In this document: positions 29,989 to 60,751 of the stretch, in pieces | Layout of the letters: each line of letters starts with the position of its first letter | Numbering within the stretch: position 1 is the first letter of the stretch | Source: Thermoanaerobaculia bacterium | Lineage (GTDB): Bacteria; Acidobacteriota; Thermoanaerobaculia; UBA5066 | DNA: 64,000 nucleotides | Direction of reading: 5' to 3' | Assembly: GCA_044229475.1 (NCBI GenBank) | Contig: JBGASW010000003.1 | Coordinates: forward strand, 738,425 to 802,424 | Translations under genes and position numbers: made by a program | The notes under the pieces: model-generated | The model's input: only the letters and a program-made list of their open reading frames with translations | Database searches by the model: none | What the model was told of the DNA's origin: nothing

Positions 29989-29998
29989 TGCATGCCTC

Positions 29999-37513: not shown

Positions 37514-39205
<1,692 letters not shown>

Positions 39206-40740: not shown

Positions 40741-40878
40741 GAGAAGAACCAGAAAAAAGAAGGAAATTCTTAGAAGGTGCCTTCTTTATTTCGGCTACGG
40801 CGCGCACATGAGGCGAAGACACCGCATGCATTAGGCAGATTTCGCATCTGCCCTATTATCATTCGAAGAAACTATCTT
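40741..40878. repeat. palindromic low-GC element, copy E (AT-rich intergenic island)
   Basis: AG-rich flank, left arm GAAATTCTTAGAAGGTGCC, about 75-nt core, right arm TATCATTCGAAGAAACTATCTT. Confidence 0.6.
40751..40792 (-). terminator. possible intrinsic terminator downstream of the polyprenyl synthase gene
   Basis: On the minus strand GAAATAAAGAAGG-ca-CCTTCTAAGAATTTC (imperfect stem) is followed by CTTCTTTTTTCT. Confidence 0.35.
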
Positions 40879-44653: not shown

Positions 44654-45237
44654 GGCTGGTAGGGTCCTTTCGCTTCGGGGTACTGCGTCACGATCGACGC
44701 GTCGCCTCCGGCCGTCTTCCACGTCCACGCGAGGAGGCGGGCCGTCAGCGTGACCGCGGCGGCGCGGCGCTGGGCGGAGGTCGCGGCAGGGAGCTGCGCG
44801 GCGGCGAGCGCCTCGGGCGCGGCGAAGGGGTCGGCGGAGAAACCGAGAAACGGCGAAGGGCCCTGCGTCCCGGGGGCGTCGGGCGCATAGGCCATCGCGG
44901 CCGCGTGCACGATCGAGCCGGCCGCATAGGCGACGTCCGCGAACGCCGAGTGGCGCCTGATCGCGGCCGCGAGGGCGCGGGTGTCCCGGGCCGCGGCCTG
45001 GCGGTGCGCGGGGTCACCGGGCGCGAGGATCTCGGCGGCGGCGGCGTCCGAGACGCCCTGCATGAGCCTCTTTCCGTGCTTCGCGAGCTGGCGCTTGAAG
45101 TCCGGCGGGGCCCAGGACGCGGCCTCGGCCGCGATCCGGGCCTCGTCTGCGACGGTCCAGCGGACCGGTTCGGCCGCGCGGGCGGCGGGGGCGGCGACGG
45201 CGAGGGCGAGTGCGGCGGAGAACGCGCGGCTCTTCAT
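44650..45237 (-). CDS. secreted hypothetical protein (Ala-rich)
   Basis: ATG 45237. Signal peptide MKSRAFSAALALAVAAPAARA. Translationally coupled to purH. Confidence 0.5.
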   Translation of the reverse strand: MKSRAFSAALALAVAAPAARAAEPVRWTVADEARIAAEAASWAPPDFKRQLAKHGKRLMQGVSDAAAAEILAPGDPAHRQAAARDTRALAAAIRRHSAFADVAYAAGSIVHAAAMAYAPDAPGTQGPSPFLGFSADPFAAPEALAAAQLPAATSAQRRAAAVTLTARLLAWTWKTAGGDASIVTQYPEAKGPYQP

Positions 45238-45292
45238 GGCGGGCGGATTGTACGGGGCCGCGCGTAGACTCGGTGGACACGGGATCAGGCGG

Positions 45293-46777
45293 ATGGACAC
45301 GCGTCGAATCGTGGCGCTCGCGGCCCTTGGAACGCTCGGCGGTGCGGCGGCGCTCGCCGTCTTCCTCGCCGAGAGGCCCATGGCTCCGGGCGCGCGGTTC
45401 CGGCCGGCAGCCGTGCCGGGAGAGGATTTCGCCCTGCTGCCCGAATCGGGGCGCACGTTCGCCCGGGTCGTCATCGGGCTTCGGCCCCACGGCACCTCCC
45501 GGAAGAACGCGTCACGCGGCGCCCGGAACCCTCGCGCCGTCGAGCTCCGCCGGCGTCTCTTCGGCATCGACTTCGAGCTTCTCCACGGCGCGTGCATGAG
45601 CGCGGCGCCGGCTTACTCCACGTTCTTCGTCGCCGTCCCCGACCCCGCGACCGTCCTGGAGGCGTCGGGCGAGGAGGAGGCCGATTTCCGTTCGTACCTC
45701 GAGTCGCGTCTCGGCTGGCCGGAGGCGGCGATCCGGTCCCGCGTGCGCTTCTTCCGCGTCTCGCGTCCCCTCCTCTACCCCCAGGACATGGCCGAGATCC
45801 TCGGCCTCGACACGGCGGGCCGGCTCGTCCTGGGCGTCGGCGCGGACACGGACCTGCAGTACATCGAGCCCGTCGAAACACTCGTCCGGGAGTTCCCCCG
45901 GGACTTCGCCCTACGCCGCCTCGCCGGCCTGCACGTCGGCGACGTGAATACCGAGGGCGGCGACCTCGCGTTGAGCTGGCTCCCCGACGGGAAGGTCGGC
46001 CTCCTCGTCGGGCGCCACCGCGCCGTCCGCTATCTCGAACGCTTGACCGGCAGCGAGATCCTGGGCCGGCCCTTGACGGAGGCGGAGATCGACGAGTCGC
46101 GCCGGGCGTTCTCGTTGGCGTTCTTCGGCGTCGAGGTCGTGATCGCCGGGGAGGCCGCGCTTCGCGACCCGTCGCGCGGAAGCGAAGAGCTGTTCCACGC
46201 CGACATGGTCGTCGCGGCCGTCCGCAACGATCACGAGGCGCTCGCGTTCGTTCCCACGTACGTGATGCGGCCGCGCGACGCGAACTCGGGCGAGCTGTTC
46301 CCGGAAGCGTTCGTGCGGGACGTCCAGAGGGAGTACGACCTCGTCGCGGGCCAGATGGAGGGACGGGGGTATCGCGTGGTCCGCCTTCCCTTCGAGGACC
46401 ACCCCGTCCGGGCGCCCGTGAACGTGAGCAAGTTCGTGGATCGGACGAACGGGAGACCCGTCGTCCTCCTCGGACGCTATCCGGAGCACCGGCCGGCAGC
46501 CCCGGGCGAGGCGAGCCCCATGCTGCGGCTCGCCGATGCGGTCGTCCGGCTCCAGTCGTTCGTCGACGCCTGGGAGGAGCGGCCGGAGGAGCCTCGGTGG
46601 GCGGCGCTCCAGACGGAGATCGAGAACGCGTGGAAGCAGATCGACGCCGCCACGGCGAGCCCGAATGATCTGTTCGAGGCGCAGCGCGCCCTCTACGAGG
46701 CGAACGGCATCTCCGTCGTCCCGCTGCCGCTCTACCCGAGCGGCGAAGGCGGGGTCCACTGCCTGCTTCTGCGCTAG
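45293..46777 (+). CDS. membrane-anchored protein with guanidino-group-modifying-enzyme (amidinotransferase/deiminase)-like C-terminal signature
   Basis: ATG 45293 gives TM anchor IVALAALGTLGGAAALAVFL (ATG 45596 is an alternative start). C-terminus ...PSGEGGVHCLLLR resembles the GG(I/V)HC catalytic-Cys motif of the GME superfamily. Confidence 0.55.
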   Translation: MDTRRIVALAALGTLGGAAALAVFLAERPMAPGARFRPAAVPGEDFALLPESGRTFARVVIGLRPHGTSRKNASRGARNPRAVELRRRLFGIDFELLHGACMSAAPAYSTFFVAVPDPATVLEASGEEEADFRSYLESRLGWPEAAIRSRVRFFRVSRPLLYPQDMAEILGLDTAGRLVLGVGADTDLQYIEPVETLVREFPRDFALRRLAGLHVGDVNTEGGDLALSWLPDGKVGLLVGRHRAVRYLERLTGSEILGRPLTEAEIDESRRAFSLAFFGVEVVIAGEAALRDPSRGSEELFHADMVVAAVRNDHEALAFVPTYVMRPRDANSGELFPEAFVRDVQREYDLVAGQMEGRGYRVVRLPFEDHPVRAPVNVSKFVDRTNGRPVVLLGRYPEHRPAAPGEASPMLRLADAVVRLQSFVDAWEERPEEPRWAALQTEIENAWKQIDAATASPNDLFEAQRALYEANGISVVPLPLYPSGEGGVHCLLLR

Positions 46778-49752
46778 AAGATCTTCAGGAAGTTCAGGGA
46801 GAGAACGACGCCGCCGTAGCCGCGGTTCCGGCCCGCGACGGGAGTCCCGGCGTCGAACCGGATCAGCGTCGCCCAGGGCCCGACGAACTCGCCGGAGATT
46901 CCGGCGCCGCTGAAGTAGGCCCAGGAGAGGCCGGCGCACCGGTCCGTCACCCGCGCGTCCTCGTAGATCGCTTCGAGGCGGAACGCGCTCCCGATCACGT
47001 ACCCGTAGGCGAATTTCGAGGTGATCGCCTCCTCGGCGCGCAGGGCGCCGGAACGGAAGCCTCTCAGCGAGGTGCCGCCGTAGAACCCGAACGTGTACTT
47101 CGAGAAGCGGTCCGTGTTGTCCGAGCCGAGGTAGCCGACGGAAGTCCGGATGCGCTGGAAGCGCGGCAGGTGGAAGTCCTTCTGCAGCTCGGCGCCCCAC
47201 GTCGTGAAGGAGTCCTTGTCCGGTGAGTAGTCGGGGTTGCCCGCGAAGCCCCACGCGTCCCACTGCGATCGCTTTCCCCACGCCCAGCGGCCCGTGAGCG
47301 CCCAGCCGCGCCAGTCCCACGCGAGCTGGCCCTCGACGCGCGTGAGCCAGTGGTCCGACGGGATGGCGAAGGCGGGCGACGTGACGTCTTCGTCGGCCGC
47401 GAAGTCGCGGTGCGACTCGCTCACCGTCCCCGTCAGCTTGAGGTGGCGCGTGAGAGGCACGCCCGCCTTGAACGCGGCCGCGAAGGAGCGGCTCTTCACG
47501 CGCTGCGACTCGTCCTCGGCGCCGTCGACGAAGACGGCGTCCGTGCCGCGGACCGCGATGCCGAAGACGTCGACCCCGACGTCGACGGGCGACCCGAAGA
47601 GGCGCGGCTGGCTCCACGACGCCGCGAGGAGGACGCCGCCGAAGAGGACCTGCACCTGGTCGTGACGCTTGCTCGCGTCGAGGTCGATCCAGTAGACGCC
47701 GAGGAGCGGGAGCGGGTAGTCGTACGAGCCGTCGTAGAAAAGGCCGGCGAGGCCGAAGAGGTGCCCGCGCTTGCGGTCTTCCGTGACCTCGCGGCCGCCG
47801 TCCTTCGTCTTCTCGAGGTAGCGGACTCCCTTCTCGGTGTCGCGGACCATCGTGTCCTTCGACGCGAAAGCCTCCTCGCGCTCGGCGCGGAACGTCGCGT
47901 CGTCGAGGCGTACGTCCGTGAGGACGCTCTCGCGCTCGATCACGGTCGTGCGGGAGAACGTCTTCAGGATCCACTGGCCCGTCGTACGCGTCGGGAAGCG
48001 GAGGGGCGGCCCGCCGTCGGGCGCCGGGACGTCGGTGAAGTCCGACGTCTCGTCCACGGCCTGGATCTCGCCCGTGAGGTTCAGCTGGCGGGTGCGGATC
48101 CGCACGGCCCCGTAGCCGTCCCGGGCGATCCACACGCGGCCCGCGTACGAGGGCTTGTCCGTCACGGCGACGCGCGGCTCGAAGTCGAGGGACCAGCAGG
48201 CCACGCCGCTGACGGTGTCCTCGCCGATGAGCGTGTAGCGGTACGCGTCGTCGAGCGTGAGCGCGAGCGGCATGTCCGAGACCTTCTCGGGCTGCAGGAG
48301 CGGCAGCTCGGGGAGCGTCTTGGCCCTCCAGCGAACGCCGTTGAAGTACGCGTCGTGCCACGCCCAGTCGAACCCCGCCCCCTTCTCGTAGAAGAACGGC
48401 CCGGCGAGCGTGAGGTCGAGCGTGTTGCCAAGGTTCGCGAAGCGGAAGCGCATCGAGAGCGAGTTCGTAGCCGAGAGCGTCTTCCAGCGCGCGTCGCGCG
48501 CGGCGCGCCACGCCTGGTGCCGGGCGAGGATCTCCTCGGCCGTGATGCCACGCGCCGCCGTGACGCCGACCGCCGCCGTCGGAGCCTCGGCCGGCGCCTT
48601 CTCCCGCGCGGTCAGGCGAACGGCGAGGGGGCCTTTCGCGAGGGAGAGCGTCAGGCGCGCCGGGACCGCCGAGGCGGGGATCTCGAGCCTCTTCGTGGCT
48701 CCCGTCGCGAGCTCGAGGATCTCGGCGGAGGCGTAGGGCGTCGCGTCCAGCGTCAGGGTGAAGGCGCCGGTGTCGGCCGGCGATCCGTCGCGGGTCCCGG
48801 ACACGAGGACGACGCCGCCGAGGTCGGCGCCCGACACGACACGGAACGCATCGCGCGGCGAGCCGTCGGCCGCGGCGACGGAGGCCGCGCGCGTGTCGGG
48901 CCCGAAATCGCCTGAAACGAAGCGCCCGAACCGCTCGAGGATGGCGTCGTCGGCGGGCGCCCACGCGGGCGAAACGGTGACGAAGGGGATGTTCTCGGGC
49001 GCGAGCCGGGTCGCGGCGGCGAGAACCGCGCCGGGGGTGCGGACGGAGCCGCCGAGGTCCACGAGCCCCGGCTTTCCGAAGGCGACCGAGTCGATGGCGC
49101 CTCGGACCTGGGCGGGAGTCGTCCGTTCGTTTCCGGCCACGGCGATCAAGTCGAGATAAGCCGTGTTTTCTTCCGAAAGGAGGAGACGGGCCTCGGCGCT
49201 CACGAGGTCGCCCGCGGCGCCGGGAGGCGCTTCGAACACGATCCGCGCGTGCGGGGCGGCCGCGCGCGCGCCCGAGGTGCACTTTCTAAGAAGATACGCC
49301 CGCGCCTTCGAGTCGGCGCCCGCAGGCGCCGAGAAGGAAATCGTCACGAGATCCGCGGTCTTCGCATCCCTCAGGATCTCTCCCAATCCCGGCCACAGGT
49401 CCTCCACGGTCGCCGCCTCGGCCGCACGCACGTCCGCCGGCACGGCGGCGTCCGGCAGTTCCAGCTTCAGGCCCCACTTCCAGCCGGCGCCGTGCGCGTG
49501 CTCGGCGAGCTCGCGCGACGCCTCGACGGCCGCCGCACGGCCTCCGGCCCAGCCGGCAGCGTCCAGACGGAGCAGGAGTCCCGGGGCGTTCGCCGAACGG
49601 GCCGCGGTCGGCAGGTTCGCGATGCGCGCGATGCGCGCGTCTCGAGGACCGACGGCGAGCCACGGGACGACGTACGGACGGGGCGTCTCCCCCGCGGCTG
49701 CGGGGGAGAGCAGACCCCCAAGGAGGACCGCGAGAAGCCGGTGCACCTTCAC
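46774..49752 (-). CDS. 992-aa outer-membrane protein: N-terminal unknown region, LolA/lipoprotein-sorting-like middle, C-terminal beta-barrel
   Basis: GTG 49752. Signal peptide VKVHRLLAVLLGGLLSPAAAG. C-terminus ...VVLSLNFLKIF. Its stop overlaps the convergent gene stop (CTAG). Confidence 0.65.
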   Translation of the reverse strand: MKVHRLLAVLLGGLLSPAAAGETPRPYVVPWLAVGPRDARIARIANLPTAARSANAPGLLLRLDAAGWAGGRAAAVEASRELAEHAHGAGWKWGLKLELPDAAVPADVRAAEAATVEDLWPGLGEILRDAKTADLVTISFSAPAGADSKARAYLLRKCTSGARAAAPHARIVFEAPPGAAGDLVSAEARLLLSEENTAYLDLIAVAGNERTTPAQVRGAIDSVAFGKPGLVDLGGSVRTPGAVLAAATRLAPENIPFVTVSPAWAPADDAILERFGRFVSGDFGPDTRAASVAAADGSPRDAFRVVSGADLGGVVLVSGTRDGSPADTGAFTLTLDATPYASAEILELATGATKRLEIPASAVPARLTLSLAKGPLAVRLTAREKAPAEAPTAAVGVTAARGITAEEILARHQAWRAARDARWKTLSATNSLSMRFRFANLGNTLDLTLAGPFFYEKGAGFDWAWHDAYFNGVRWRAKTLPELPLLQPEKVSDMPLALTLDDAYRYTLIGEDTVSGVACWSLDFEPRVAVTDKPSYAGRVWIARDGYGAVRIRTRQLNLTGEIQAVDETSDFTDVPAPDGGPPLRFPTRTTGQWILKTFSRTTVIERESVLTDVRLDDATFRAEREEAFASKDTMVRDTEKGVRYLEKTKDGGREVTEDRKRGHLFGLAGLFYDGSYDYPLPLLGVYWIDLDASKRHDQVQVLFGGVLLAASWSQPRLFGSPVDVGVDVFGIAVRGTDAVFVDGAEDESQRVKSRSFAAAFKAGVPLTRHLKLTGTVSESHRDFAADEDVTSPAFAIPSDHWLTRVEGQLAWDWRGWALTGRWAWGKRSQWDAWGFAGNPDYSPDKDSFTTWGAELQKDFHLPRFQRIRTSVGYLGSDNTDRFSKYTFGFYGGTSLRGFRSGALRAEEAITSKFAYGYVIGSAFRLEAIYEDARVTDRCAGLSWAYFSGAGISGEFVGPWATLIRFDAGTPVAGRNRGYGGVVLSLNFLKIF

Positions 49753-49778: not shown

Positions 49779-50255
49779 TCAGAGTCCGCGCATGTGGTCG
49801 CCGCTGGGCTCGACCGCGAGCACGGCGACGAACCAGGCGACGAGGAGCACGGTCCCGCAGCCCTCGAGCACGCCCCCGGCGCGCAGCAGCGTGCCGGCGT
49901 CCAGCGCGTGTGACTGCAGAAGGGCGATCGCAGCCGCCACGAGCAGCAATCCACCGCAATCGAGACCCAGGGAGGCGGCCAGGAACGCCTTCGGGGGACG
50001 GCTCAGGTAGCGCCTCTCGGCGAGCCGCGCGAGGGCGACCCAGACGGCGGGCAGCACCCCGACGAGGGCCAGCCCCTCGAGGGCCGTGTCCAACGGGAAA
50101 GGTGCCCCGTGAAAGGCCGTGGTGAGGGCGACGACGCTCGTCGCGAAGAGCGAGAACGTCGAGACCGAGCGGCTCCAGAACTCGAGGGCGGCGCGGCGGG
50201 TCAACGGCGATCGTCCGCTGGCGGACACGGATCCGGGCATACGCAGGAGCTGCAT
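49779..50255 (-). CDS. hypothetical 4-TM membrane protein
   Basis: Hydrophobic segments FSLFATSVVALTTAF, LALVGVLPAVWVAL, GGLLLVAAAIALL, TVLLVAWFVAVLAV. No family recognised. Confidence 0.45.
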   Translation of the reverse strand: MQLLRMPGSVSASGRSPLTRRAALEFWSRSVSTFSLFATSVVALTTAFHGAPFPLDTALEGLALVGVLPAVWVALARLAERRYLSRPPKAFLAASLGLDCGGLLLVAAAIALLQSHALDAGTLLRAGGVLEGCGTVLLVAWFVAVLAVEPSGDHMRGL

Positions 50256-50300
50256 GCAGTCGTTGGACGCAGCCCCCGCGAAAAAGTTTGCCGGCTCAGC

Positions 50301-51389
50301 TCATTTCTTTCCGAATCCTTTGCCGGATTTCGGCTCCGCCGACGGATGGGGTGTGGCGACCGTCACGGGTCCCGCGGCGAAGACGTCGGACGCCGGAAGG
50401 CCCAGGTTCGTCCGGATCTTCTTCTCGATCTCGGTCGCGATGTCCGGGTTGTCCCGGAAGAACTGCTTCGTGTTTTCGCGGCCCTGTCCGATCCGCAGGT
50501 CGCCGTAGCTGAACCACGCTCCCGACTTGTCGACGATCTTCATCTCGATGCCGAGGTCGACGAGCTCGCCGGTCTTCGAGATCCCCTCGCCGTAGCCGAT
50601 GTCGAACTCCGCGACCTTGAACGGCGGCGCGACCTTGTTCTTGACGACCTTGACCTTCGTCCGGCTGCCGACGACGTTCTCGCCGTCCTTGATCGCGTTG
50701 ATGCGGCGGATGTCGATGCGCACGGACGAGTAGAACTTGAGCGCACGGCCGCCGGTCGTCGTCTCGGGGTTGCCGAACATGACGCCGATCTTTTCGCGGA
50801 TCTGGTTGATGAAGATGAGCGTGGTCTTGGATTTCGAGACGACCGCGGTCAGCTTCCGGAGCGCCTGCGACATGAGGCGGGCCTGCAGGCCGACCATCGC
50901 GTCGCCCATCTCGCCCTCGAGCTCGGCCTTCGGGACGAGCGCCGCGACCGAGTCGACGACGACGACGTCCACGGCCGCCGAGCGCACGAGGGCCTCGGCG
51001 ATCTCGAGCGCCTGCTCGCCGGAATCGGGCTGCGAGACCATGAGGTTGTCGACGTCGACGCCCAGCTTGCGGGCGTAGTCAGGGTCGAGCGCGTGCTCGG
51101 CGTCGATGAACGCCGCGAGGCCGCCGCGCTTCTGCGCCTCCGCGATGATGTGGAGCGTGAGCGTCGTCTTGCCCGAGGACTCGGGCCCGAAGATCTCGAG
51201 GACGCGCCCGCGGGGCACGCCGCCGATGCCGAGGGCGTAGTCGACCCCGATGGAGCCGGTGGAGATGGCCTGGATCGTCTCCTGCGGCTTGTCGCCGAGG
51301 CGGACGAGCGCGCCCTTGCCGAACTGGCGGTCGATCTGCTGCATCGCCTGCTCGAGCGCCTTGAGTTTTTCCTTGTTCACTTCGACCAT
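50301..51389 (-). CDS. recA: recombinase RecA
   Basis: Walker [10 protein letters not shown]. Full-length RecA pattern. GGAG RBS. Confidence 0.98.
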
Positions 51390-51412
51390 GTGGTCTCCTT
51401 CAAGCGTGGCGG

Positions 51413-51418
51413 ATTATA
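51413..51418 (-). promoter_or_regulatory. candidate -10 box (TATAAT) for recA
   Basis: Perfect TATAAT on the minus strand, 24 nt upstream of the recA ATG. The -35 is poor (CCGAAT). Confidence 0.4.
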
Positions 51419-51435
51419 GGGATGGAAGAAGGGAG

Positions 51436-51467
51436 ATTCGGCTCGGATTCGGATTTCGGAATTCGGA
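51436..51467. repeat. short tandem GGATTCG-type repeats flanking element A
   Basis: ATTCGGCTCGGATTCGGATTTCGGAATTCGGATTT. The inverse, CCGAATCC repeats, flanks element B. Confidence 0.7.
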
Positions 51468-51557
51468 TTTCTTAGAAGGGTGAATGAGGGCGGCTTGCCG
51501 CGGGAACGGCGAGGCGGGCGCACTTGGCACAGCCCGCATTCACCTTCTAAGAAAATC
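51467..51557. repeat. palindromic low-GC element, copy A (recA / pgpA divergent intergenic region)
   Basis: ATTTCTTAGAAGGGTGAATG ... 50-nt GC-rich core ... CATTCACCTTCTAAGAAAAT. Arms pair over 17-18 bp with one bulge. Confidence 0.85.
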
Positions 51558-51605
51558 TTCTTGGGGCGAAACGGCCTAGGATGAGGCCGCAGGCAGAAGG
51601 AACGG

Positions 51606-52151
51606 ATGGAAATTAGGCCCGGAAAATCCGAAACGCAAGGAATTCTTCGCCCCTGGCGCGAGGTGTTCGCGGAGGCGCGCGTGACGACGCTCGTCTCGAC
51701 GTGGTTCGGCGCGGGGTTCCTTCCGATCGCTCCCGGGACGTGGGGGAGCCTCGCCACGATCCCGGTCGCGCACCTGATCGTGCTCCTGTGGGGGGTCTGG
51801 GGCCTCGCGGGCTTCGCGCTCGGCGTCGCCATCGTCGGGACACACGCCTCCGGCGAAACCGCCCGCCTGCGCGGCGTGAAGGACCCGTCCGAGGTCGTCG
51901 TGGACGAGGTCGCCGGGCAGTCGCTCGCGCTCCTTCCCGTCTACGCGCTCGTCCCGCCCGATGCCGTGGTCCTGCGGATCGGCACGATCCTCCTCGCCTT
52001 CCTTCTCTTCCGCATCCTCGACGTGTGGAAACCGGGCCCGATCGGATGGCTCGAGCGGCTGCCGGGCGGTTTCGGGATCATGGCCGACGACCTCCTCGGC
52101 GGCGCCGTCGCGGCCGCGATGGTCGCGGCCGGTCTCCTCCTGAAGGGATGA
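51606..52151 (+). CDS. pgpA: phosphatidylglycerophosphatase A
   Basis: STWFGAGFLPIAPGTWGSL, DPSEVVVDEVAGQ, FRILDVWKP, GFGIMADDLLGG. Start is uncertain (a later GTG is possible). Confidence 0.8.
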   Translation: MEIRPGKSETQGILRPWREVFAEARVTTLVSTWFGAGFLPIAPGTWGSLATIPVAHLIVLLWGVWGLAGFALGVAIVGTHASGETARLRGVKDPSEVVVDEVAGQSLALLPVYALVPPDAVVLRIGTILLAFLLFRILDVWKPGPIGWLERLPGGFGIMADDLLGGAVAAAMVAAGLLLKG

Positions 52152-53074
52152 TTGAAGGGATGATCCCCGACGCCCTGCGCGGCCCGGGGATCGCCGTCCG
52201 CGAAGGCGAGCCGCTCGCCGCGCGCACGACGCTCCGCATCGGCGGCCCCGCGCGGTTCTTCGCCGAGGTGGCCGACGCGGAGGCTCTCGCGCGCGTCCTG
52301 CGCTTCGCGTCGGCGGAGGGGCTGCCGCTCCTCGTCCTCGGCAAGGGCTCGAACCTGCTCGTTCCGGACGCGGGATTCCCGGGAGTGGTCGTCGTCCTCG
52401 GAGGAACCTTCCGCGCGGTTCGCGTCGAGGGAGCAGAGGTCGTCGCGGGCGGCGGCGTCTCCCTGATGGCGCTTGCGGTCGCGGCGCGGGACGCGGGGCT
52501 CTCCGGCGTCGAGAACGTCTCGGGCATCCCGTCGTCCGTCGGCGGCGCCGTGCGGATCAACGCGGGCTCCTACGGCTCGGAGATATTCGACGTACTCGTC
52601 TCCGCGACGCTCGTCTCGCGCGCGGGCGAGGCGCGGGCCGTGGCCGCCACGGAGATTCCGCACGGCTACCGCTGGACGGCGCTCTGCGAGCGCGACGACG
52701 TGGTGGCCGAAGCGCGCTTTCGCCTTTCGAAGAAATCTCCGGCCGAAATCGCCGAGCGGATGGCCGAGGTGGCCGCGAGGCGCCGCGACGCCCTTCCGAA
52801 ACAGCCGAACGCCGGGTCGATCTTCAAGAACCCGCCGGGCCTCTTCGCCGGGAAGCTCCTCGAGGAGTGCGGCCTCAAGGGCCGGCGGGTGGGTGGGGCG
52901 GAGATCTCGCCCGTCCACGCGAACGTCATCGTGAACACGGGCGGCGCGACGGCGGAGGACGTGAAGGCCTTGATGACGGAAATGAAGAAGGCCGTGAAGG
53001 GCAGGTTTGGCATCGAGCTCGAACCTGAGATCCAGATCGTCGGAGAAGAGAAGATCTCTTTGAAGGGTGAGTGA
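52148..53074 (+). CDS. murB: UDP-N-acetylenolpyruvoylglucosamine reductase
   Basis: ATGA overlap with pgpA. TTLRIGGPARFF, LVLGKGSNLLV, GGAVRINAGSYG, SIFKNP. Confidence 0.92.
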   Translation: MIEGMIPDALRGPGIAVREGEPLAARTTLRIGGPARFFAEVADAEALARVLRFASAEGLPLLVLGKGSNLLVPDAGFPGVVVVLGGTFRAVRVEGAEVVAGGGVSLMALAVAARDAGLSGVENVSGIPSSVGGAVRINAGSYGSEIFDVLVSATLVSRAGEARAVAATEIPHGYRWTALCERDDVVAEARFRLSKKSPAEIAERMAEVAARRRDALPKQPNAGSIFKNPPGLFAGKLLEECGLKGRRVGGAEISPVHANVIVNTGGATAEDVKALMTEMKKAVKGRFGIELEPEIQIVGEEKISLKGE

Positions 53075-53145
53075 GCCCGGGGCGCCTGCACCCGGCTCGC
53101 CAGAACTCGAGCGCTGCGCGGCAGGGATCACCTTCTAAGAAGATC
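53053..53145. repeat. palindromic low-GC element, copy B (contains the murB stop codon)
   Basis: GATCTCTTTGAAGGGTGAGTGAGCCC ... core ... GGGATCACCTTCTAAGAAGATC, followed by CCGAATCC-type repeats at 53145-53174. Confidence 0.85.
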
Positions 53146-53196
53146 CGAATCCGAATCCGAAAATCTCCGAATCCCCGGCCTCCGTACAATGTCTCG

Positions 53197-54312
53197 ATGG
53201 CCGACGCGTCCGTTCGCGCCCTGATCCTCGCGGGAGGCAGCGGCACGCGCCTCTGGCCGCGGTCGACGGACTCGAAGCCCAAGCCGTTCCTCGCCCTCAC
53301 GGGAAGGGACTCGCTGCTGCGCGAGACGTACCGCCGGGCGGCGGCCGTCGCGGGCGCCGCGAACGTCTGGGTCTCCGGGCGCGCGTCGCACGGCGCGCTC
53401 CTCGCGGCCGAACTGCCCGAGGTTCCCGCGTCGCGGCTCGTTCTCGAGCCGACGCGCCGCAACACGGCGCCCGCGATCGCGCTGTCCGTGCTCGCGGCAT
53501 GCGCGGACGATCCTCGGGCCGTCGTCCTGGTCCTGCCTTCCGATCAGGCTGTCGCCGACGAGCCCGCGTTTCTCGCCGCGCTCCGCGAGGGCGCGGCCGT
53601 CGCCGCGAAAGAGGACGCCTTCGTCACCCTCGGCATCCCGCCGACTCGTCCCGAGACGGGATACGGCTACCTGGAGACGTTCGAAGAGCACGAAGAGACC
53701 GGAGAGAAGATTTCTTCGAGTGGAGGAGAGCAGGGGGGCAGGACGGCGCGCGGCGAAGCGCCGGCCGCGCGCGTCGTTCGCCGGTTCGTCGAGAAGCCCG
53801 ACGCGGCAAAGGCCGCCGAGTTCCTCGCCTCCGGCCGCTTCCTGTGGAATGCCGGGATCTTTCTCTTCCGGGCGGAACACCTCCTCGCGGAGATGCAACG
53901 CACCTGTCCCGAAGTCCTCGCCGCGGCCCGCCGCGCATTCGCCGCTCGAGCGAGCGGCGATCACACCACCTTCAAAGAATCTTTCTCTTCTTCCCCCTCC
54001 ATATCGATCGACGTCGCGGTCATGGAAAAGGCGAGGCGCGTCCTCACGATTCCGTCGGCGTGCGGCTGGAGCGACCTCGGATCCTGGGAAGCCGTGTTCG
54101 AGTTCCGGGGCGGCAGGCCGGGCGCGGACGTGATCGAAGGCGACGGCGCCTCGGAAGGCGGCGCGGGCAACCTCGTCCTCGCGGACGCGCGGCCCGTGAG
54201 GGTCGTCGGCCTCTCGGGCGTCGCGGTCGTGGAATCTCCGGACGGACTGCTCGTGATGAAGCTCGGCGCCTCGGACGACCTGCGCCGGGCCGTCGAGAAG
54301 GGGTTGAAATGA
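53197..54312 (+). CDS. mannose-1-phosphate guanylyltransferase-like nucleotidyltransferase
   Basis: LILAGGSGTRLWPRS, LEPTRRNTAPA, LPSDQ, GYGYLE, FVEKPD, WNAGIFLF, SIDVAVMEK, WSDLGSW. Confidence 0.85.
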   Translation: MADASVRALILAGGSGTRLWPRSTDSKPKPFLALTGRDSLLRETYRRAAAVAGAANVWVSGRASHGALLAAELPEVPASRLVLEPTRRNTAPAIALSVLAACADDPRAVVLVLPSDQAVADEPAFLAALREGAAVAAKEDAFVTLGIPPTRPETGYGYLETFEEHEETGEKISSSGGEQGGRTARGEAPAARVVRRFVEKPDAAKAAEFLASGRFLWNAGIFLFRAEHLLAEMQRTCPEVLAAARRAFAARASGDHTTFKESFSSSPSISIDVAVMEKARRVLTIPSACGWSDLGSWEAVFEFRGGRPGADVIEGDGASEGGAGNLVLADARPVRVVGLSGVAVVESPDGLLVMKLGASDDLRRAVEKGLK

Positions 54313-55268
54313 GCGCTCCCGCAGCCGCCGCGGTCGTCGCGTCGATCGGACGCCTCGTGGCGACGGTCCGAACCGCGTACCGCGGCCCCGCCGCGGCCGT
54401 CGAGGACGCCGTCGTCTGTCTCCTCGCCCGCGGCCACCTCCTCATCGAGGACGTGCCCGGCGTCGGCAAGACGACGCTCGCGACGGCGCTCGGAAAGGCG
54501 CTCGGCGTCGGCGTCCACCGGCTGCAGTTCACGCCGGACACGCTCCCGAGCGACATCCTGGGCCTGACGGTCTTCAACCAGCGGGCCCAGGAGTTCGAGT
54601 TCCACCCGGGGCCGATCTTCACGCCCGTCCTCCTCGCCGACGAGATCAACCGCGCGACGCCGAAGACGCAGTCCGCGCTCCTGCAGGCCATGAACGAGCG
54701 CGCCGTGTCCTCGGACGGGGTGACGCGGCCGCTTCCGGAGCCGTTCCTCGTCCTCGCGACGCAGAACCCCGTCGAGTACCTCGGGACGTACCCGCTTCCC
54801 GAGTCGCAGCTCGACCGGTTCCTCCTCCGGATCTCGCTCGGCTACCCGGCGCCGGACGAGGAGCGCCGCCTCCTGATCTCCGGGGGCGCGGACCGCGTCC
54901 TCGCGCAGCTCCAGCCCGCGATGAACCTCGAGGACCTGAAGGCCGCGCAGGACGCGACCGAGCGCGTCACCGTCGCGGACAAGCTCATGGACTACATCCT
55001 CGCCATCGTGGCGAGGACGCGCACGGGGAAGGACCTCCTTCTCGGCGTTTCGCCGCGCGGCGCGCAGGGCTTCTTCCGCGCCGTGCAGGCGCGCGCCCTC
55101 GTCGCGGGGCGCCCGTACGCGACGCCGGACGACGTGAAGCGCGTCGCCGTCCCGGCGCTCGCGCACCGCGTGCTCGCGTCGCAGCCCGGCGCGTGGGACG
55201 GCGGCGGCGGGCGCCGCGAGCGCGACGCGATCCAGCGTCTCCTCGACGAAATCCCCGTCCCCCTCTGA
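54309..55268 (+). CDS. MoxR-family AAA+ ATPase
   Basis: EDVPGVGKT (Walker A), LLADEINRA (Walker B), ATQNP. Confidence 0.92.
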   Translation: MSAPAAAAVVASIGRLVATVRTAYRGPAAAVEDAVVCLLARGHLLIEDVPGVGKTTLATALGKALGVGVHRLQFTPDTLPSDILGLTVFNQRAQEFEFHPGPIFTPVLLADEINRATPKTQSALLQAMNERAVSSDGVTRPLPEPFLVLATQNPVEYLGTYPLPESQLDRFLLRISLGYPAPDEERRLLISGGADRVLAQLQPAMNLEDLKAAQDATERVTVADKLMDYILAIVARTRTGKDLLLGVSPRGAQGFFRAVQARALVAGRPYATPDDVKRVAVPALAHRVLASQPGAWDGGGGRRERDAIQRLLDEIPVPL

Positions 55269-55272
55269 TGCC

Positions 55273-56289
55273 GTGACGTTTCGCGCGCGCCTCAGGAAGC
55301 TCCTCGACCCCGGGATCCTCGTGCGCGTCACGAATCTCGGCCTGGGCTTCATCCTCCTCACGCTCGTCGTCGCCGTGGCCGCGACGAACACGGGCAACAA
55401 CGGCCTCTACATCCTCGTCTCGCTCTTCCTCGGCGCGCTCGTCGTGTCGGGCGTCGTCTCCCGGCGCAACGTCGAGAACCTCTCGGTCGAGCTCGAGGGT
55501 CCGCCCGAGCTGTACGCCGGAATCCCGTCGCGCTTCACGCTCCGCGTCACGAACGGGGGCCGCCTGCCGCGCCGCGCGGTCCTCGTGAAGATCTCCGGCG
55601 CCGCCGCGCCGCTCCTCTTCGGACGGGTGAACCCCGGCGAGACGACGGCCCGCGGCGTCGACCTCGTCTTTCCGAAGCGCGGCCTGCGCTCGCTCGAGTC
55701 CCTCCTCGTCTACAGCGGCTACCCGATCGGCCTCTTCCGCAAGGGGCGCGTCCACCCGCTGACGGAGGAGCGGCTCGTGTACCCGGCGCCCGCGGTCGTC
55801 CGGTCGGTCCCGCCCGACCCGCGCCAGGCCGAGGGCGGCGACCCCCGCAGCTTCCTGCGCGGGCGCGGCCCCGAGATCCGGAACCTCCGCGACGCGGGCT
55901 TCGGAGACGACCCGCGCGACGTTCACTGGCCCCAGACGGCGCGGCAGGGCCGGTTCATCGTCAAGGAGCGCGCTTCGGAGGAAGGCCGCGACGCGCTCGT
56001 CGCGCTCGACGTCGCGCGACCCCCGGGGGCGCCGCCCTCGTGGGACGCCGCGTTCGAGCGGTCCGTTTCCGAAGCGGCGGGGCTTGCCCTGCAGCTCCTC
56101 GCGCGCGGGAATCGGACCGGGCTTCTCCTCGGCGACGTCCTCGTGCCCCCGGGAGCGGGGCCCGCGCACCGCCGCGGCCTCTTGCGCGCGCTCGCGCTCG
56201 TCGTCCCGGCCGACCGGCCAGCCGCGCCGCGGGCGCTGCCCGCGAGCGTCGCCGTGTTCCGGGCCGGCCCGAAGGGAAGGGCGGCGTGA
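55273..56289 (+). CDS. DUF58-family protein (MoxR partner)
   Basis: Two N-terminal TM segments. GDDPRDVHWPQTARQGRFIVKE motif. Confidence 0.85.
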   Translation: MTFRARLRKLLDPGILVRVTNLGLGFILLTLVVAVAATNTGNNGLYILVSLFLGALVVSGVVSRRNVENLSVELEGPPELYAGIPSRFTLRVTNGGRLPRRAVLVKISGAAAPLLFGRVNPGETTARGVDLVFPKRGLRSLESLLVYSGYPIGLFRKGRVHPLTEERLVYPAPAVVRSVPPDPRQAEGGDPRSFLRGRGPEIRNLRDAGFGDDPRDVHWPQTARQGRFIVKERASEEGRDALVALDVARPPGAPPSWDAAFERSVSEAAGLALQLLARGNRTGLLLGDVLVPPGAGPAHRRGLLRALALVVPADRPAAPRALPASVAVFRAGPKGRAA

Positions 56290-58424
56290 AGGACGCGCCC
56301 GGCGCCGCGGCGGGAGTCCTCCCGCTTCCGTTCTTGCGCGAGCGCGTCCTCGCGGTGGGCTCGCTCGCGCTCCTCGCGCCCGTGCCGCTCTTCTTCGCGA
56401 ACGCGCTCGAGCTGCTCGTGCTGCTCGTCTACGTCCTCGCGCTCGGGCTCCTCCTCGCGCGCGCGCGTGGCGGCTCCGTTCCGCGCCTTCCGAACTGGGT
56501 CCTGAACCTCGCCGGCCTCGCCTACCTGCCCGTCGTCTACTTCGACGCCCGCTACGGGAGCCGTTCGCTCCTGAAGACGATGCTCCACCTGCTCCTCTTC
56601 ACGACCGTCTTCAAGCTCGCGGCGATCCGCCGGGAACGCGATCTCTCGGTCGCTCTCGTCCTGTCCGCCATGCTCTTCGTCGCGTCGGTCTCGACGTCGT
56701 TCCACGTCGCGATCCTCCCGTACGTCGGCCTCGTGTCGTGCGTCGCGTGGACGGTCCTCGTGAAGTGGGCCCTCTGGCGCGACCTCGCGGCGGCGCCCGA
56801 GGAGTGGGAGCGCGACCGCGCCGCGCGCACGCTGCCGGGCGTCGCGCCCCTCGCGTCGTCGGTCGCCGCCGCGATGGCCCTCGCGGTCCCGCTGTTTCTC
56901 TTCCTGCCGCGCCTGAAGGCTCCCGTCGTGCGCGGGGGCGAGGCGGGCCGTGAGATCACGACGGGCTTCTCGGACACCGTGGACCCCGACATCTTCGGAG
57001 CCCTGAAGAACAGCGACCGCGTCATGCTGCGGGTCACGAGCGAGGAGCCGCTGGACGCCGGCGCGGTCCTGCGCCTCCGGACGCTCGCGCTGACGCGATT
57101 CGAGCGCGGCGTCTGGAAGAAGCCCGAGCGCCCCGGGAGCGTGCCGCCCGGGACGCGCAGCGGCCTCGTCCCGCTCGGCCCGCGCCCCGGCAGCGGCGCC
57201 GCGATGACGATCGACCTGACCCCTCTCCAGAGTCGCTCCCTTCCCATGCCGGCCGGCGCGGACGGCCTGAGGCTGTCGGAGACTTCGTTTCGCAGCCCGA
57301 GCCGGGCGCTCGTCTTCGTCGACGCCGCGCGCAACGTGAGCCTGGGCTTCGAGCCGGAGACGACGGTGCAATACACGGTCACGGCGAACCGCCGTCCCGC
57401 GCGCGACCTCGGCCGCGGCGCGGAGGAAGACGGCCTCGCCGGGCCGGATTCGGAGACCGTACGCGCGTTCGCGCGCGACGCGTTCGCCGGCATCGACCCG
57501 GCGGCCGATCCGGAGGGGGCCGCGCGGGCGCTGGAGGGCGTCTTCCACCGCGAGCCGTTCCGCTATCAGCTCGACCTCGCGCCACGCGGGCCGAACGCCC
57601 TGGAGGAGTTTCTGACGGTGAGGCGCGCGGGCCACTGCCAGACGTACGCGAGCGCCATGGCGCTCCTTCTGCGCTCGGCCGGCATCCCGACGCGCTTCGT
57701 GACGGGCTTCCTCGGCGGGGAGATCGGCGCGTTCGGCCGCTACGTCCTCGTGCGCGGCAACAACGTGCACGCGTGGGTCGAGGCCTGGTGCGGGCCGGAG
57801 AAGGGCTGGGTCACGTTCGACCCGACTCCGGCCGCGGGCCAGCCGCGGCTCGAGCGCGTGCCGCTCTCGGCGCGACTGAGGCAGGTCACGGACGGGATCG
57901 AGTTCTTCTACGACCGCTTCGTCCTCTCGTTCGGGCAGAGCGACCAGGCCGAAATGCTCCGCCGCCTCCGCGAGGCGACGGTCGGGCTCTCCGCGGCGCT
58001 GAAGGGCGCCGGTTCGGCGGCCGGGACGGCGCTCGCGCGCCTCACGGGAGGGCGCGTGTGGGCGGGCGCGGGTACGATCGCCCTCGCCGCGGCGCTCGCC
58101 GCGCTCGCGATGCGGCGGCTCCTCTCCCGCGCGCACTTCGGCACGCGAGGCCTCCCGCCGGCGTCGGCGGCGTACCGCCGGCTCCAGAAGGCGCTCCACC
58201 GGCGCGGCGCGCCGCTGACGCCGTCGTCCGCGCCCGCCGAGACGCTCGCGGCGGCGGCGGCTTACGGCCGCGCAGCGGCCGAACCCGCCGCCGCCATCGT
58301 CAAGGCGTACGTGCGGGAGTCGTTTGGAGGATTTTCTGCTTCGGAAGAAGAGAAGAAAGACCTTGGGGAGAAGCTGGAGCGTTTCAGGTCAGCGCTGTCC
58401 AGCCGCCCCGCCGCGATTTCTTAG
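56286..58424 (+). CDS. transglutaminase-like membrane protein (DUF3488 + TGase core)
   Basis: GTGA overlap with the upstream gene. Multi-TM N-terminus. GHCQTYASAMALLLRSAGIPTRFVTGF...HAWVEAW...FDPTP Cys-His-Asp core. Confidence 0.85.
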   Translation: MKDAPGAAAGVLPLPFLRERVLAVGSLALLAPVPLFFANALELLVLLVYVLALGLLLARARGGSVPRLPNWVLNLAGLAYLPVVYFDARYGSRSLLKTMLHLLLFTTVFKLAAIRRERDLSVALVLSAMLFVASVSTSFHVAILPYVGLVSCVAWTVLVKWALWRDLAAAPEEWERDRAARTLPGVAPLASSVAAAMALAVPLFLFLPRLKAPVVRGGEAGREITTGFSDTVDPDIFGALKNSDRVMLRVTSEEPLDAGAVLRLRTLALTRFERGVWKKPERPGSVPPGTRSGLVPLGPRPGSGAAMTIDLTPLQSRSLPMPAGADGLRLSETSFRSPSRALVFVDAARNVSLGFEPETTVQYTVTANRRPARDLGRGAEEDGLAGPDSETVRAFARDAFAGIDPAADPEGAARALEGVFHREPFRYQLDLAPRGPNALEEFLTVRRAGHCQTYASAMALLLRSAGIPTRFVTGFLGGEIGAFGRYVLVRGNNVHAWVEAWCGPEKGWVTFDPTPAAGQPRLERVPLSARLRQVTDGIEFFYDRFVLSFGQSDQAEMLRRLREATVGLSAALKGAGSAAGTALARLTGGRVWAGAGTIALAAALAALAMRRLLSRAHFGTRGLPPASAAYRRLQKALHRRGAPLTPSSAPAETLAAAAAYGRAAAEPAAAIVKAYVRESFGGFSASEEEKKDLGEKLERFRSALSSRPAAIS

Positions 58425-58504
58425 AAGGGTGAGTGGGCCTTTCGCAGGTGCGGGGCCGGTGCGATTGGCGGGGCCGCCCGCCCTCTTCACCTTCTAAGAA
58501 AATC
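58415..58504. repeat. palindromic low-GC element, copy C (contains the transglutaminase-like gene stop TAG)
   Basis: GATTTCTTAGAAGGGTGAGTGGGC ... core ... CCCTCTTCACCTTCTAAGAAAATC. Confidence 0.85.
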
Positions 58505-58536
58505 TTCCTCTTCTCTTTCTCTTCTTCTTCCTCTTC
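58505..58536 (+). repeat. 32-nt polypyrimidine (CT) tract
   Basis: TTCCTCTTCTCTTTCTCTTCTTCTTCCTCTTC lies directly after the right arm of element C. A purine-rich mirror (GGAAGAAGAGAAGAAAGA) lies at about 58343-58362. Confidence 0.8.
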
Positions 58537-58554
58537 GTCGCCCTGGCGGACGGC

Positions 58555-60117: not shown

Positions 60118-60147
60118 TTATTCCGTCTTTTTCTCTGCGATGGAGCG

Positions 60148-60705
60148 CTACGGGCTGTAGGGAGGGCACGTGACCGTCGCGTAGTTGGCGCTCTTGAGGG
60201 TCGCCGAGTCCTCCGCCCGCACCGTGAGGCTGTACGAGTTTCCGACCTGCCGCTTCGGGACGGCCGTGTCGGAAGGATCGTCCCTCGGAGGCCCGCACGC
60301 GACGCGGAAGCCGAGGCCGGCGTTCGAAGCGCTGACATACAGGCTCGTCTGGAAGAAGCCCTGGGCGCGGAAGACGAGCTTGTCGTCGATGAACATGTGC
60401 AGGTAGACCATGTAGTTCGGCGCGGCCGAGACGGACGTGTAGGCGACGTTGACGAAGCAGGCGTCCTGCCGAGGGTCCGGCTGGGTGCAGTAGGGCGCCT
60501 GGCTGTCGATGAAGCTGATCAGGGGCGTGCGGCCGGTTGCCAGGGCGGTGCGGGTACTCGAGCCGTGGGATTCGACCACCATGCCGCCGTCCGGGGGTGG
60601 CGCGACGGGTTTCGCGGCGGCCTGCGCGGCCCGCTCCCCGGGAGGCGCGGCCGCGAGACAAAACGGCAGCAGGGCGAACGTGGCGAGGGCTCGCGTCAGG
60701 CTCAT
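60148..60705 (-). CDS. 185-aa secreted protein, stand-alone copy of the N-terminal domain of the downstream gene
   Basis: GAGGAGGAG RBS. Signal peptide MSLTRALATFALLPFCLAAA. FIDSQAPYCTQPDPRQD...FRVACGPPRDDP...ANYATVTCPP. Confidence 0.7.
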   Translation of the reverse strand: MSLTRALATFALLPFCLAAAPPGERAAQAAAKPVAPPPDGGMVVESHGSSTRTALATGRTPLISFIDSQAPYCTQPDPRQDACFVNVAYTSVSAAPNYMVYLHMFIDDKLVFRAQGFFQTSLYVSASNAGLGFRVACGPPRDDPSDTAVPKRQVGNSYSLTVRAEDSATLKSANYATVTCPPYSP

Positions 60706-60751
60706 GGTCTCCTCCTCACTGAAGCGAGGAGAAGCTTATCGCAACACGGTC

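Follow-up and report, generated by a model that had tools for sequence, protein, structure and literature searches.

How does a genome of ~70% GC come to carry, between recA and pgpA and again at several other places, a short AT-rich palindrome with conserved ends and a variable middle, and why do these ends persist? The question is raised by a stretch of 64,000 nucleotides (contig JBGASW010000003.1, positions 738,425 to 802,424), which we call the window, from a member of the Thermoanaerobaculia, a group of abundant, almost uncultured Acidobacteriota of soil and sediment. The palindrome is one copy of a dispersed family, for which we have coined the name Thermoanaerobaculia palindromic element (TPE), whose copies are old and vertically inherited and whose arms appear to be held by selection on their nucleotide sequence, even inside essential genes.

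The unit between recA and pgpA

Between recA (50301-51389, minus strand) and pgpA (51606-52151, plus strand), the identities of which are backed by Pfam, lies a unit of ~90 nt (51467-51556, hereafter E1) consisting of an AT-rich 20-nt arm, a GC-rich spacer of ~50 nt and the inverted arm. Its parts are as follows, L011 being a locus orthologous to 51.1-59.4 kb of the window.

51436-51466, plus strand: left flank, a GGATTC-like hexamer tract, GATTCGGCTCGGATTCGGATTTCGGAATTCGG, read from the sequence
51467-51486, plus strand: left arm, ATTTCTTAGAAGGGTGAATG, recognised by sequence, covariance-model score and fold
51487-51536, plus strand: GC-rich spacer ('core') of 50 nt, read from the sequence
51537-51556, plus strand: right arm, CATTCACCTTCTAAGAAAAT, then CTTCTT up to 51565; identical to L011 at 20/20 positions

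The arms are ~30-40% GC in a window that averages near 70%, and they fold into a stem of 18-19 bp with a single bulged G, the left arm having one G more than the right. The initial annotation, made from the letters of the window alone, had proposed an AT-rich palindrome with a 17-18 bp stem at this place, and the palindrome is real, its sequence being as described. The left arm contains a 9-bp palindrome, TTCTTAGAA, as well as TAG and TGA in two of its frames. An 18-mer from the arm occurs four times in the window at no more than three mismatches (0.00 expected, 100 shuffles). The left-flank tract, which differs in length by 19 nt in L011 and resembles the flanks of other copies, extends into the sequence that precedes the -10 box of recA (TATAAT, 51413-51418, minus strand).

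Two further observations concern this intergenic region. The TATAAT, a perfect match ~24 nt upstream of the recA start, is kept as GGATTATAGG in all relatives, and a GGCGAA(A/T)CGGCCTA(C/G)GAT block (51573-51592), between E1 and pgpA, is conserved in all of them as well. No LexA-type box was recognised.

A dispersed family in Thermoanaerobaculia

Is E1 an isolated curiosity? A covariance model (R1), built from 53 seed copies chosen for intact arms, finds four clear and three weak copies in the window. E1 scores 71 bits, which is strong, and the other clear copies are:

53054-53144, plus strand: E2, full copy between murB and a ManC-like gene (56.5 bits, strong)
58416-58503, plus strand: E3, full copy between convergent genes (74.3 bits, strong; inverted repeats I11 and I19)
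63294-63384, minus strand: E4, diverged copy in frame in a GT4 glycosyltransferase gene (36.5 bits on the minus vs 22.1 on the plus strand, clear)

The copies and coordinates listed by the initial annotation were therefore essentially right, four being clear by the covariance model and the others weak, with 40741-40878 doubtful. Depending on how weak copies are counted, the density in the window is 60-110 copies per Mb. In 376 kb of fetched loci R1 finds ~17 copies beyond the seeded ones (roughly 45 per Mb), which gives a range of roughly 45-110 copies per Mb in a Thermoanaerobaculia clade, with about 70 copies in 440 kb of related loci.

Beyond these loci, the pattern AGAAGGGTGA-N35-65-CACCTTCTAAG was run on one genome per GTDB species, where by our own estimate ~8 matches are expected by chance. 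It returned at least 50 loci, all of them, among the matches listed, in metagenome-assembled genomes (MAGs) of Thermoanaerobaculia/Acidobacteriota and none in other taxa; these loci span at least 19 species-level genomes, and the MAGs come from at least five independent projects. Such enrichment beyond the window, over at least 50 loci and 19 species-level genomes, is what the idea of a single local duplication would not give: the family is neither a chance pattern nor a local duplication. The same pattern run on IMG/VR gave only two identical matches, in contigs of 36% GC, which we attribute to chance, and carriage by phages was rejected. Nor could the consensus be matched to a described element, the initial annotation having recognised none either: Rfam covariance models give no match in the window at gathering thresholds and none on the elements between 51300 and 58700 at E<=5, and in the literature searched we found no paper with the arm sequence in a relevant context or describing repeats in Thermoanaerobaculia.

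The architecture common to the copies is a hexamer microsatellite, a 20-24-nt AT-rich arm of the form (A)TTTCTTAGAAGG(G)TGA(G/A)TG, a GC-rich spacer of ~50 nt, the inverted arm and another microsatellite, the arm consensus from the alignment being nTTTCTTAGAAGGGTGAGTGGGG ... CCCATTCACCTTCTAAGAAAAT. The arms form 18 modelled base pairs, 92% of cells being able to pair, and each contains the dyad TTCT-N-AGAA. Covariation between arms equals that of a shuffled control, compensatory changes being absent. Hexamer microsatellites often border the copies, with (GAAGAG)n or (GGATTC)n to the left of the element and the complementary repeats to its right. They occur in mixed combinations, and their repeat number differs between close relatives; the AG-rich/CT-rich and GGATTCGG/CCGAATCC extensions of the arms noted earlier are real and are these microsatellites.

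As for the spacers, their length is 48-51 nt in 47 of 59 copies, and we infer that the ~75-bp distance between the two arm sites is constrained. Their identity across loci averages 0.60 (0.57 in a shuffled control), the best non-orthologous pairs reaching 0.76-0.80; a subset has a recognisable consensus, and at orthologous loci the spacers are collinear. This similarity looks like a faint trace of common ancestry. The initial description of conserved arms with variable cores thus holds, while that of the cores as 'unrelated' does not, given their narrow length, subset consensus and homology at orthologous sites. The spacers do not fold better than shuffled sequences (mean z -0.16), and RNAalifold gives only six invariant arm pairs; a structured RNA in the spacer was rejected for want of consensus structure, excess folding and covariation.

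The extra G is usually on the left arm in most copies. However, the search pattern was asymmetric and imposed this on the seed copies, and some lineages have the extra base on the opposite arm of E1 with the spacer not inverted. Orientation is therefore given little weight and is not relied on as a functional feature.

Orthologous sites and the history of the copies

When did these copies arise, and how do they disappear? L011 has E1, E2 and E3 at the same positions as the window, and a search with MurB gave 80 further metagenome loci in which the same sites could be followed. Copies are common to species whose synonymous sites are 25-35% diverged. The E1 site is occupied, with a collinear spacer, in all relatives down to ~70% MurB identity, and its pgpA-side arm is kept (at most one mismatch in CCTTCTAAGAA) in 10 of 11 distinct sequence types ascertained through MurB, the left arm in five. 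The copies are thus old and vertically inherited.

The E2 site displays full, half and empty states. It is full in the window and in L011, reduced to a solo right arm in L052 and L054 and to a left remnant in L055 and L051, and empty in L068-L078, where murB ends within a conserved CCGTAGAATGA; insertion here replaced ~12 nt of the 3' end of murB. (L051 and L060 were first taken for empty sites and are probably remnants, L068-L078 being truly empty.) In L052, which is ~90% identical to the window, only the right arm and part of the spacer remain at all three sites, and upstream open reading frames (ORFs) finish in ..FTF* on the arm's TAA. The family, in other words, decays by loss of one half.

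No two spacers within one genome are more than 0.74 identical, so there is no sign of recent transposition. A domain search of 50 predicted genes of the window (pyrG, 37514-39205, a polyprenyl-synthetase-like gene, 40891-41949, and a small ORF, 13537-13788, lying outside it) found no transposase, integrase or reverse transcriptase, in agreement with what had been read from the letters alone. As for insertion signatures, the pair TTCTTAGAA/TTCTAAGAA was considered as the 9-bp duplication of an IS10-style symmetric target and rejected: the central base of the left member is consistently T and that of the right member A, which makes these inverted, not direct, repeats.

Selection on the arms

The arms appear to be under purifying selection at the nucleotide level while the spacers drift about neutrally, as judged from sequence comparison. 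Between the window and L011, spacer identity is 0.76, 0.60 and 0.80 (E1, E2 and E3), that is, in the region of third codon positions of neighbouring genes (0.64-0.78); left and right arms are at 0.95/1.0 (E1, 19/20 on the left), 0.85/0.80 (E2) and 0.65/1.0 (E3). Free of bias towards intact arms are the loci ascertained without reference to the arms, which are L083 and L107 (through MurB only) and E3 of L011. In L083 and L107, arms and proximal flanks are 1-2 nt from the window and spacers are clearly diverged by eye; the left arm of E1 has one mismatch in L083 and differs only in its last base (GAATC) in L107. At E3 of L011 (L011:7348) only the right arm is conserved (20/20), the left arm being at 0.65. 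With a neutral identity of 0.72, the probability of at least 19/20 identical positions is 0.012 per arm.

Copies inside genes provide a second line of evidence. Their arm codons (TTT CTT AGA AGG GTG and CAC CTT CTA AGA) are rare in a genome where GC at third positions (GC3) is ~0.9. In a methyltransferase-like gene all four species have the same codons. In hemD, again compared in four species, one site varies among the five left codons (TTT/TTG) and one more among the four right codons (CTT/TTT). In the adjoining codons only 8/20 and 10/20 third positions are invariant.

Could arms be kept alike by exchange rather than by selection? Arm variants specific to a locus (GAATG at E1, TTGCTT..GAATACGG at hemD) are inherited across species, which argues against homogenisation between loci, and the lack of double (compensatory) changes speaks against correction of one arm by the other. 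Moreover, solo right arms are intact in L052 at three loci and, at E1, across lineages without a left arm, which points to the arm sequence itself, not the hairpin, as the selected unit.

Position relative to genes

Genes were called with our own simple codon-bias caller for high-GC sequence, which places the copies as follows:

28 copies between tandem genes, co-oriented with them
16 copies between tandem genes, anti-oriented
16 copies between convergent genes
8 copies between divergent genes

Occupied are 15/56 convergent, 35/261 tandem and 4/58 divergent intergenic regions (Fisher p = 0.005 for convergent vs divergent): the copies prefer the 3' ends of genes. Two of the three frames of the left arm are closed, by TAG and TGA, and the third is open; the same holds when the element is entered from the right on the other strand. 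An insertion at a gene end therefore re-terminates the ORF, while one inside a gene can persist as an in-frame segment of ~30 aa. At least 11 flanking genes stop on a codon borne by an arm, those in the window being murB (TGA at 53072-53074 in the left arm of E2) and a TgpA-like gene (TAG at 58422-58424 in the left arm of E3). The MurB_C domain ends at aa 298/308. E2 is preceded by an AG-rich tract (53041-53053) and followed by a (CCGAAT)n tract (53145-53175), and at E3 a CT-rich tract (58504-58545) mirrors an AG tract (58343-58360).

About 20% of the copies (~15/74) lie in frame inside ORFs, so that the likeness to Rickettsia palindromic elements (RPE) that had been suggested holds. Four species have ..GFLRRV[~20 aa]PLHLLRKS.. 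in the methyltransferase-like gene, with a spacer that is always 42 nt, and the hemD copy of four species has a spacer of 36, 45 or 93 nt, all multiples of 3. In-frame copies are also found in hemC and in a methylcrotonyl-CoA-carboxylase-like (biotin-carboxylase-like) gene, where the segment is a ~41-aa insertion relative to a solved carboxylase (3U9S). Where the frame would meet the TAG, copies have TCG or TTG at this place and read EKIS(S/L)xG. In the window, E4 forms the 37-aa C-terminal tail of the GT4 gene (..EDLLRRSSG..SFEENRPPSSS*), which ends in ATGA and overlaps the start of the next glycosyltransferase gene (63276); Pfam Glycos_transf_1 stops there at aa 185/241.

Some copies depart from the usual layout. 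Longer variants, with spacers of 90-190 nt between recognisable arms, occur at L047:6604-6800, L008:771-922, L008:1275-1483 and L050:6641-6780, some of them inside hemC and hemD. At the hemB-hemL junction of L008, L050, L023 and L014 (four species), an outer arm-like motif, GATTTGCTTAGAA, stands at the far end of the AG-rich tract; L014 retains it though it is without the 90-nt unit, the tract there forming an N-terminal extension of HemL (MKKKEEEKIDLLRKKKKEG...).

Several resemblances of the unit to known signals were considered and dismissed. A spliceosomal-intron look (AG/GTGAGT ... CTTCTAAG/) was rejected because copies are mostly intergenic, intragenic ORFs are open unspliced and intragenic spacers are multiples of 3. 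The left arm has some likeness to a Shine-Dalgarno sequence and the right arm to the 3' tail of 16S rRNA, with no start codon close enough to be served by it. A promoter consensus was not detected at the elements (TTCACC/GAAAAT, picked by eye, are not at promoter spacing). More generally, the interval 50000-64000 contains six canonical intrinsic-terminator-like sites (7.0 expected after shuffling) and no sigma-70 consensus promoter was found in it, so the lineage may use other signals than these.

What maintains the arms?

We think it slightly better than an even bet that TPE are an old family of the MITE (miniature inverted-repeat transposable element) or RPE kind, now vertically inherited, the arms of which are selected as sequence-specific sites. 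Unrelated loci share an architecture and, in a subset, a spacer consensus, which indicates that the copies descend from one source. The family would have spread in an ancestor by MITE-like copying and insertion, and would now be essentially immobile, while the arms would persist as recognition sites for a sequence-specific factor, of the host or derived from the element, acting on DNA; the formation of hairpins in transcripts may be a secondary possibility.

Several points weigh against this. (i) Seeds were chosen by the intactness of their arms, so that conservation of the arms is overestimated and the unbiased evidence comes from fewer loci; arms were also lost in L051, L055 and L059-62, which means that selection is not universal. 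(ii) No direct repeat that could be a target-site duplication (TSD) emerged from full/half/empty comparisons at E1, E2 and E3, although these sites are old and a short TSD could have been erased. (iii) In the absence of near-identical spacers, transposition is deduced from family structure only; the scanned window genes include no transposase, integrase or RAYT (REP-associated tyrosine transposase, REP being repetitive extragenic palindromes), and 915 kb contain neither an element of insertion-sequence (IS) length with these ends nor arm pairs 0.3-4 kb apart enclosing an ORF. (iv) The inner halves of the arms (GGGTGAGTG/CATTCACC) have no dyad of their own and are inverted between arms, an arrangement more in keeping with a hairpin or a synaptic complex than with two independent dimer sites. 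(v) The arm-binding factor is hypothetical.

A bolder, and clearly more tentative, proposal is that the arms are a genome-wide 'punctuation' maintained by the host for a sequence-specific factor, that is, a domesticated system of cis-elements and not a relic parasite. This may account for resistance to GC pressure, conservation of synonymous sites in essential genes, solo arms and the fixed ~75-bp spacing when arms are paired. If true, it would bear on, for example, chromosome organisation, insulation of bidirectional transcription and translation, or uptake, with loops of ~30 residues added to housekeeping enzymes along the way.

The main rival, unlikely as we judge it, is a hairpin at the transcript level: the arms would pair in co-transcribed RNA and serve as a 3'-end stabiliser, in termination or attenuation, or as an RNase site, the stops in the arms uncoupling translation and the C>G-skewed tract downstream of the hairpin, whichever strand is transcribed, possibly loading Rho. 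The 17-19 bp stem is in keeping with it, as are the enrichment at gene 3' ends, the flanking-gene stops in arms (at least 11 cases) and a strand-symmetric layout (AG-rich, hairpin, CT-rich) that reads the same for transcripts arriving from both sides. Intrinsic terminators, moreover, are not enriched (6 vs 7.0 expected), so other end signals may be needed. One pair is most often G-U on the strand as oriented (36/53), but this bias stems in part from the asymmetric search pattern, and the side of the bulge flips between lineages without inversion of the spacer. More damaging are the absence of compensatory changes, covariation being that of shuffles, and the conservation of single arms without a partner, both of which go against the RNA-hairpin role that the initial annotation had envisaged. 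Structure in the 50-nt spacer is neither conserved nor in excess, orientation to genes is mixed (28 co-directional vs 16 antisense in tandem contexts), and copies are found within operons and ORFs, in which termination would do harm. A terminator in particular is disfavoured by the lack of a U tract: a consensus scan finds no intrinsic terminator at the arms, where an AU-rich stem base is followed by AAAAUCUUC.

Slightly more doubtful is that TPE are purely selfish, decaying parasites of MITE or RPE type, in which arm conservation would result from ascertainment, recent homogenisation or the slower decay of low-complexity, AT-rich sequence. This would suit a dispersed family whose sites occur in full, half and empty states, numerous degenerate or solo copies, ORFs truncated or extended by insertions, the loss of arms in several lineages and seeds picked for intact arms. 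It is hard to square, however, with synonymous-site conservation, the rare-codon arms being (nearly) unchanged in two genes of four species each despite strong GC3 pressure. The arms ascertained without bias (L083, L107 and the right arm of L011 E3) are near-identical while spacers diverge, the persistence of locus-specific variants makes conversion between loci unlikely, and spacer length is narrow despite near-saturated substitutions.

We consider it very improbable that TPE are substrates for single-strand recombination or transposition (of attC, REP-RAYT or IS200/IS605 type), the folded strand with its extrahelical G being the target of a tyrosine recombinase or HUH enzyme from another part of the genome. 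Conserved arms around a variable interior, a single-base bulge (the extra G) in most copies and a total size within the attC range do recall such substrates, but GTTRRRY/RYYYAAC boxes and the GTAG/CGTC tag are lacking, copies are dispersed with no cassette arrays, the bulge changes sides at an orthologous locus, a search for recent copies gave none, and intI, RAYT and TnpA were not found among the scanned window genes.

Least probable of all is that the arm is a DNA uptake signal or another genome-wide 'word', often paired in inverted orientation, like the DNA uptake sequence (DUS) of Neisseria, since sequence-level conservation inside ORFs, solo arms and 10 TTCT[TA]AGAA in 64 kb (~0.03 expected from base composition, by our own calculation) have to be set against a density of ~1 per 10-20 kb, far below that of known uptake sequences, and against a fixed ~50-nt pairing and shared spacer ancestry that point to a transposed unit, not to independent words.

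Further copies and neighbouring genes in the window

Apart from E1-E4, the window contains copies or fragments of lesser quality.

39259-39352, plus strand: weak degenerate copy in the 3' extension of kdsB (39207-40091, minus strand), R1 E 0.02
63879-63976, minus strand: weak candidate copy in the GT4 gene of E4, upstream of its Glycos_transf_1 core, R1 E 0.025-0.05 on both strands
20632-20760, plus strand (R1 match 20671-20759): weak intragenic candidate with TTCGAA-type arms, in a 657-aa protein without Pfam match, E 0.14
53713-53775, plus strand: degenerate in-frame remnant in the ManC-like gene (..GEKI/SSSGGEQGGRTARGEAPAARV/VRRF..), a 21-aa insertion relative to the solved GMP structure 2X5S
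40741-40878, plus strand: doubtful copy whose left arm, AAATTCTTAGAAGGTG, is good, with an AT-rich interior and a right arm that matches poorly, R1 E 9 only
23316-23336, plus strand: candidate solo right arm, CTTCCTTCTAAGAAATCC, recognised by sequence just upstream of the start of an ABC ATPase gene (minus strand)
49278-49292: candidate solo arm

In KdsB the CTP_transf_3 domain ends at aa 221/294, which makes the tail extra, and the weak copy lies in this 70-aa extension. The candidate at 20632-20760, which the initial annotation had not listed, reads antisense as ..LFFEGERGW..SLFPFEEE.., and in the ManC-like gene a left-arm variant, GAGAAGATTTCTTCGAGTGG, starts just upstream of the remnant, the insertion being present, variable or absent among relatives. 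Two AT-rich patches were not counted: 53959-54004 was rejected as a remnant, as it aligns to native ManC residues in 2X5S, and 63442-63491 is probably native GT4 sequence.

Several neighbouring genes deserve mention in their own right. Immediately to the right of E3, a PKD-like protein of 516 aa and one of 185 aa without Pfam matches (58555-60705, minus strand) are missing in L052, at least the first being present in L011; the boundary of this indel abuts the CT-rich flank of E3. A 571-aa ORF without Pfam match (45062-46777, plus strand) is likewise missing from L052, where 16 nt replace ~1.5 kb, and represents a strain-specific insertion or deletion of a gene between convergent genes. Three tandem paralogs, each with a Phage Tail Collar domain (28956-30499, minus strand), lie directly downstream of a 1750-aa protein with ~10 He_PIG Ig-like repeats. 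This cluster (28956-30499 with 30530-35782 and 27700-28461), which adjoins a divergent pair of DUF6916 genes, looks like secreted or adhesin-type genes rather than a prophage. Finally, 24140-26374 (plus strand) encodes an RNA helicase of DeaD/DbpA type in which ~216 residues without Pfam match precede the DEAD domain.

Implications

The practical consequences are twofold. On the one hand, a repeat that is specific to a lineage and reaches about 50-100 copies per Mb can readily serve as a marker in binning and strain typing, and TPE are hotspots of microsatellite and deletion polymorphism. On the other hand, TPE are a source of annotation errors, in the form of C-terminal extensions, fused or truncated ORFs and 'insertions' of 20-45 aa in homologs of hemD, hemC, the carboxylase, ManC and KdsB. 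From a biological standpoint, the family is a second, independent case of the RPE phenomenon (palindromes in frame in essential genes), here in a free-living high-GC host, and selection on arms inside coding sequence would make it a clean system for asking what maintains such elements, be it a binding factor, RNA structure or drive.

Comparison with known repeat systems

How, then, do TPE compare with the repeats already known in bacteria? Like RPE, the properties of which are taken from a review (PMC10969869), they are short and palindromic, confined to one lineage and found both between genes and in frame in unrelated housekeeping genes, where they add a few tens of residues and keep the frame open; neither family has an identified transposase. 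There is no evident sequence relationship between the two, and homology to RPE-1 to -10 is not expected since phylum and base composition of the hosts differ, TPE being in free-living Acidobacteriota of ~70% GC and RPE in AT-rich, obligate intracellular Alphaproteobacteria. Moreover, TPE are shorter (~90 vs ~150 bp), most copies are intergenic, and only the residues encoded by the arms (FLRRV / LHLLRK, or EKISxxG) are conserved, at the nucleotide level.

With MITEs in general, TPE share a short length (~90 nt), dispersal in multiple copies and terminal inverted repeats, whereas the TSD of MITEs is missing at E1, E2 and E3. Correia elements of Neisseria and ERIC (enterobacterial repetitive intergenic consensus) sequences of Enterobacteria are small, non-coding, multi-copy elements with terminal inverted repeats that lie near gene ends, are co-transcribed, can carry regulatory signals and decay into partial copies (PMC10969869). 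TPE resemble them in size, copy number, terminal inverted repeats, location near gene ends and the existence of partial copies. However, Correia elements have a TA TSD, and none was found for TPE; no parent IS of TPE is known and no promoter consensus turned up in them; conservation covers the entire element in Correia and ERIC but is a matter of the arms in TPE, with an interior that varies almost freely; and hexamer microsatellites flank the TPE arms.

The likeness to REP and their clusters, BIME (bacterial interspersed mosaic elements), is of another kind, since these too are palindromic units at the 3' ends of genes, enriched between convergent genes and conserved at orthologous sites. REP/BIME are maintained by the host and bind gyrase, integration host factor (IHF) and DNA polymerase I (Pol I). 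A REP is described (PMC3733652) as a hairpin of 20-40 bp with a short loop and a GTAG/CGTC tag. TPE, in contrast, consist of two 20-nt arms 50 nt apart, the arm starts with (A)TTTCTTAG with no such tag, there is no clustered BIME arrangement and no RAYT was found among the scanned window genes. The ~90-nt unit, the 50-nt spacer and the want of tag and RAYT thus speak against membership of the REP group, which had been raised at the outset.

Integron attC sites, evoked at the same time, combine conserved, imperfectly inverted ends with a variable centre and an extrahelical base and measure 57-141 nt, all of which has a counterpart in TPE. Yet the TPE arms (TTCTAAG / CTTAGAA) have no AAC/GTT triplets and no RYYYAAC ... 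GTTRRRY boxes, and copies are dispersed among housekeeping genes, delimiting no cassettes and forming no arrays beside intI, which sets TPE apart from attC. Mycobacterial interspersed repetitive units (MIRU), finally, are tandem direct repeats of 46-101 bp located inside operons of high-GC genomes. TPE have in common with them a high-GC host, a location inside operons and stop/start overlaps with flanking genes, but MIRU are direct tandem repeats and TPE are palindromic.

In behaviour, TPE are therefore closest to RPE and to MITEs such as Correia and ERIC, and in arm conservation and preference for gene 3' ends closest to REP/BIME. Where they go beyond what is usual for such repeats is in the apparent nucleotide-level selection of their arms inside essential genes and in the constrained spacing of these arms.

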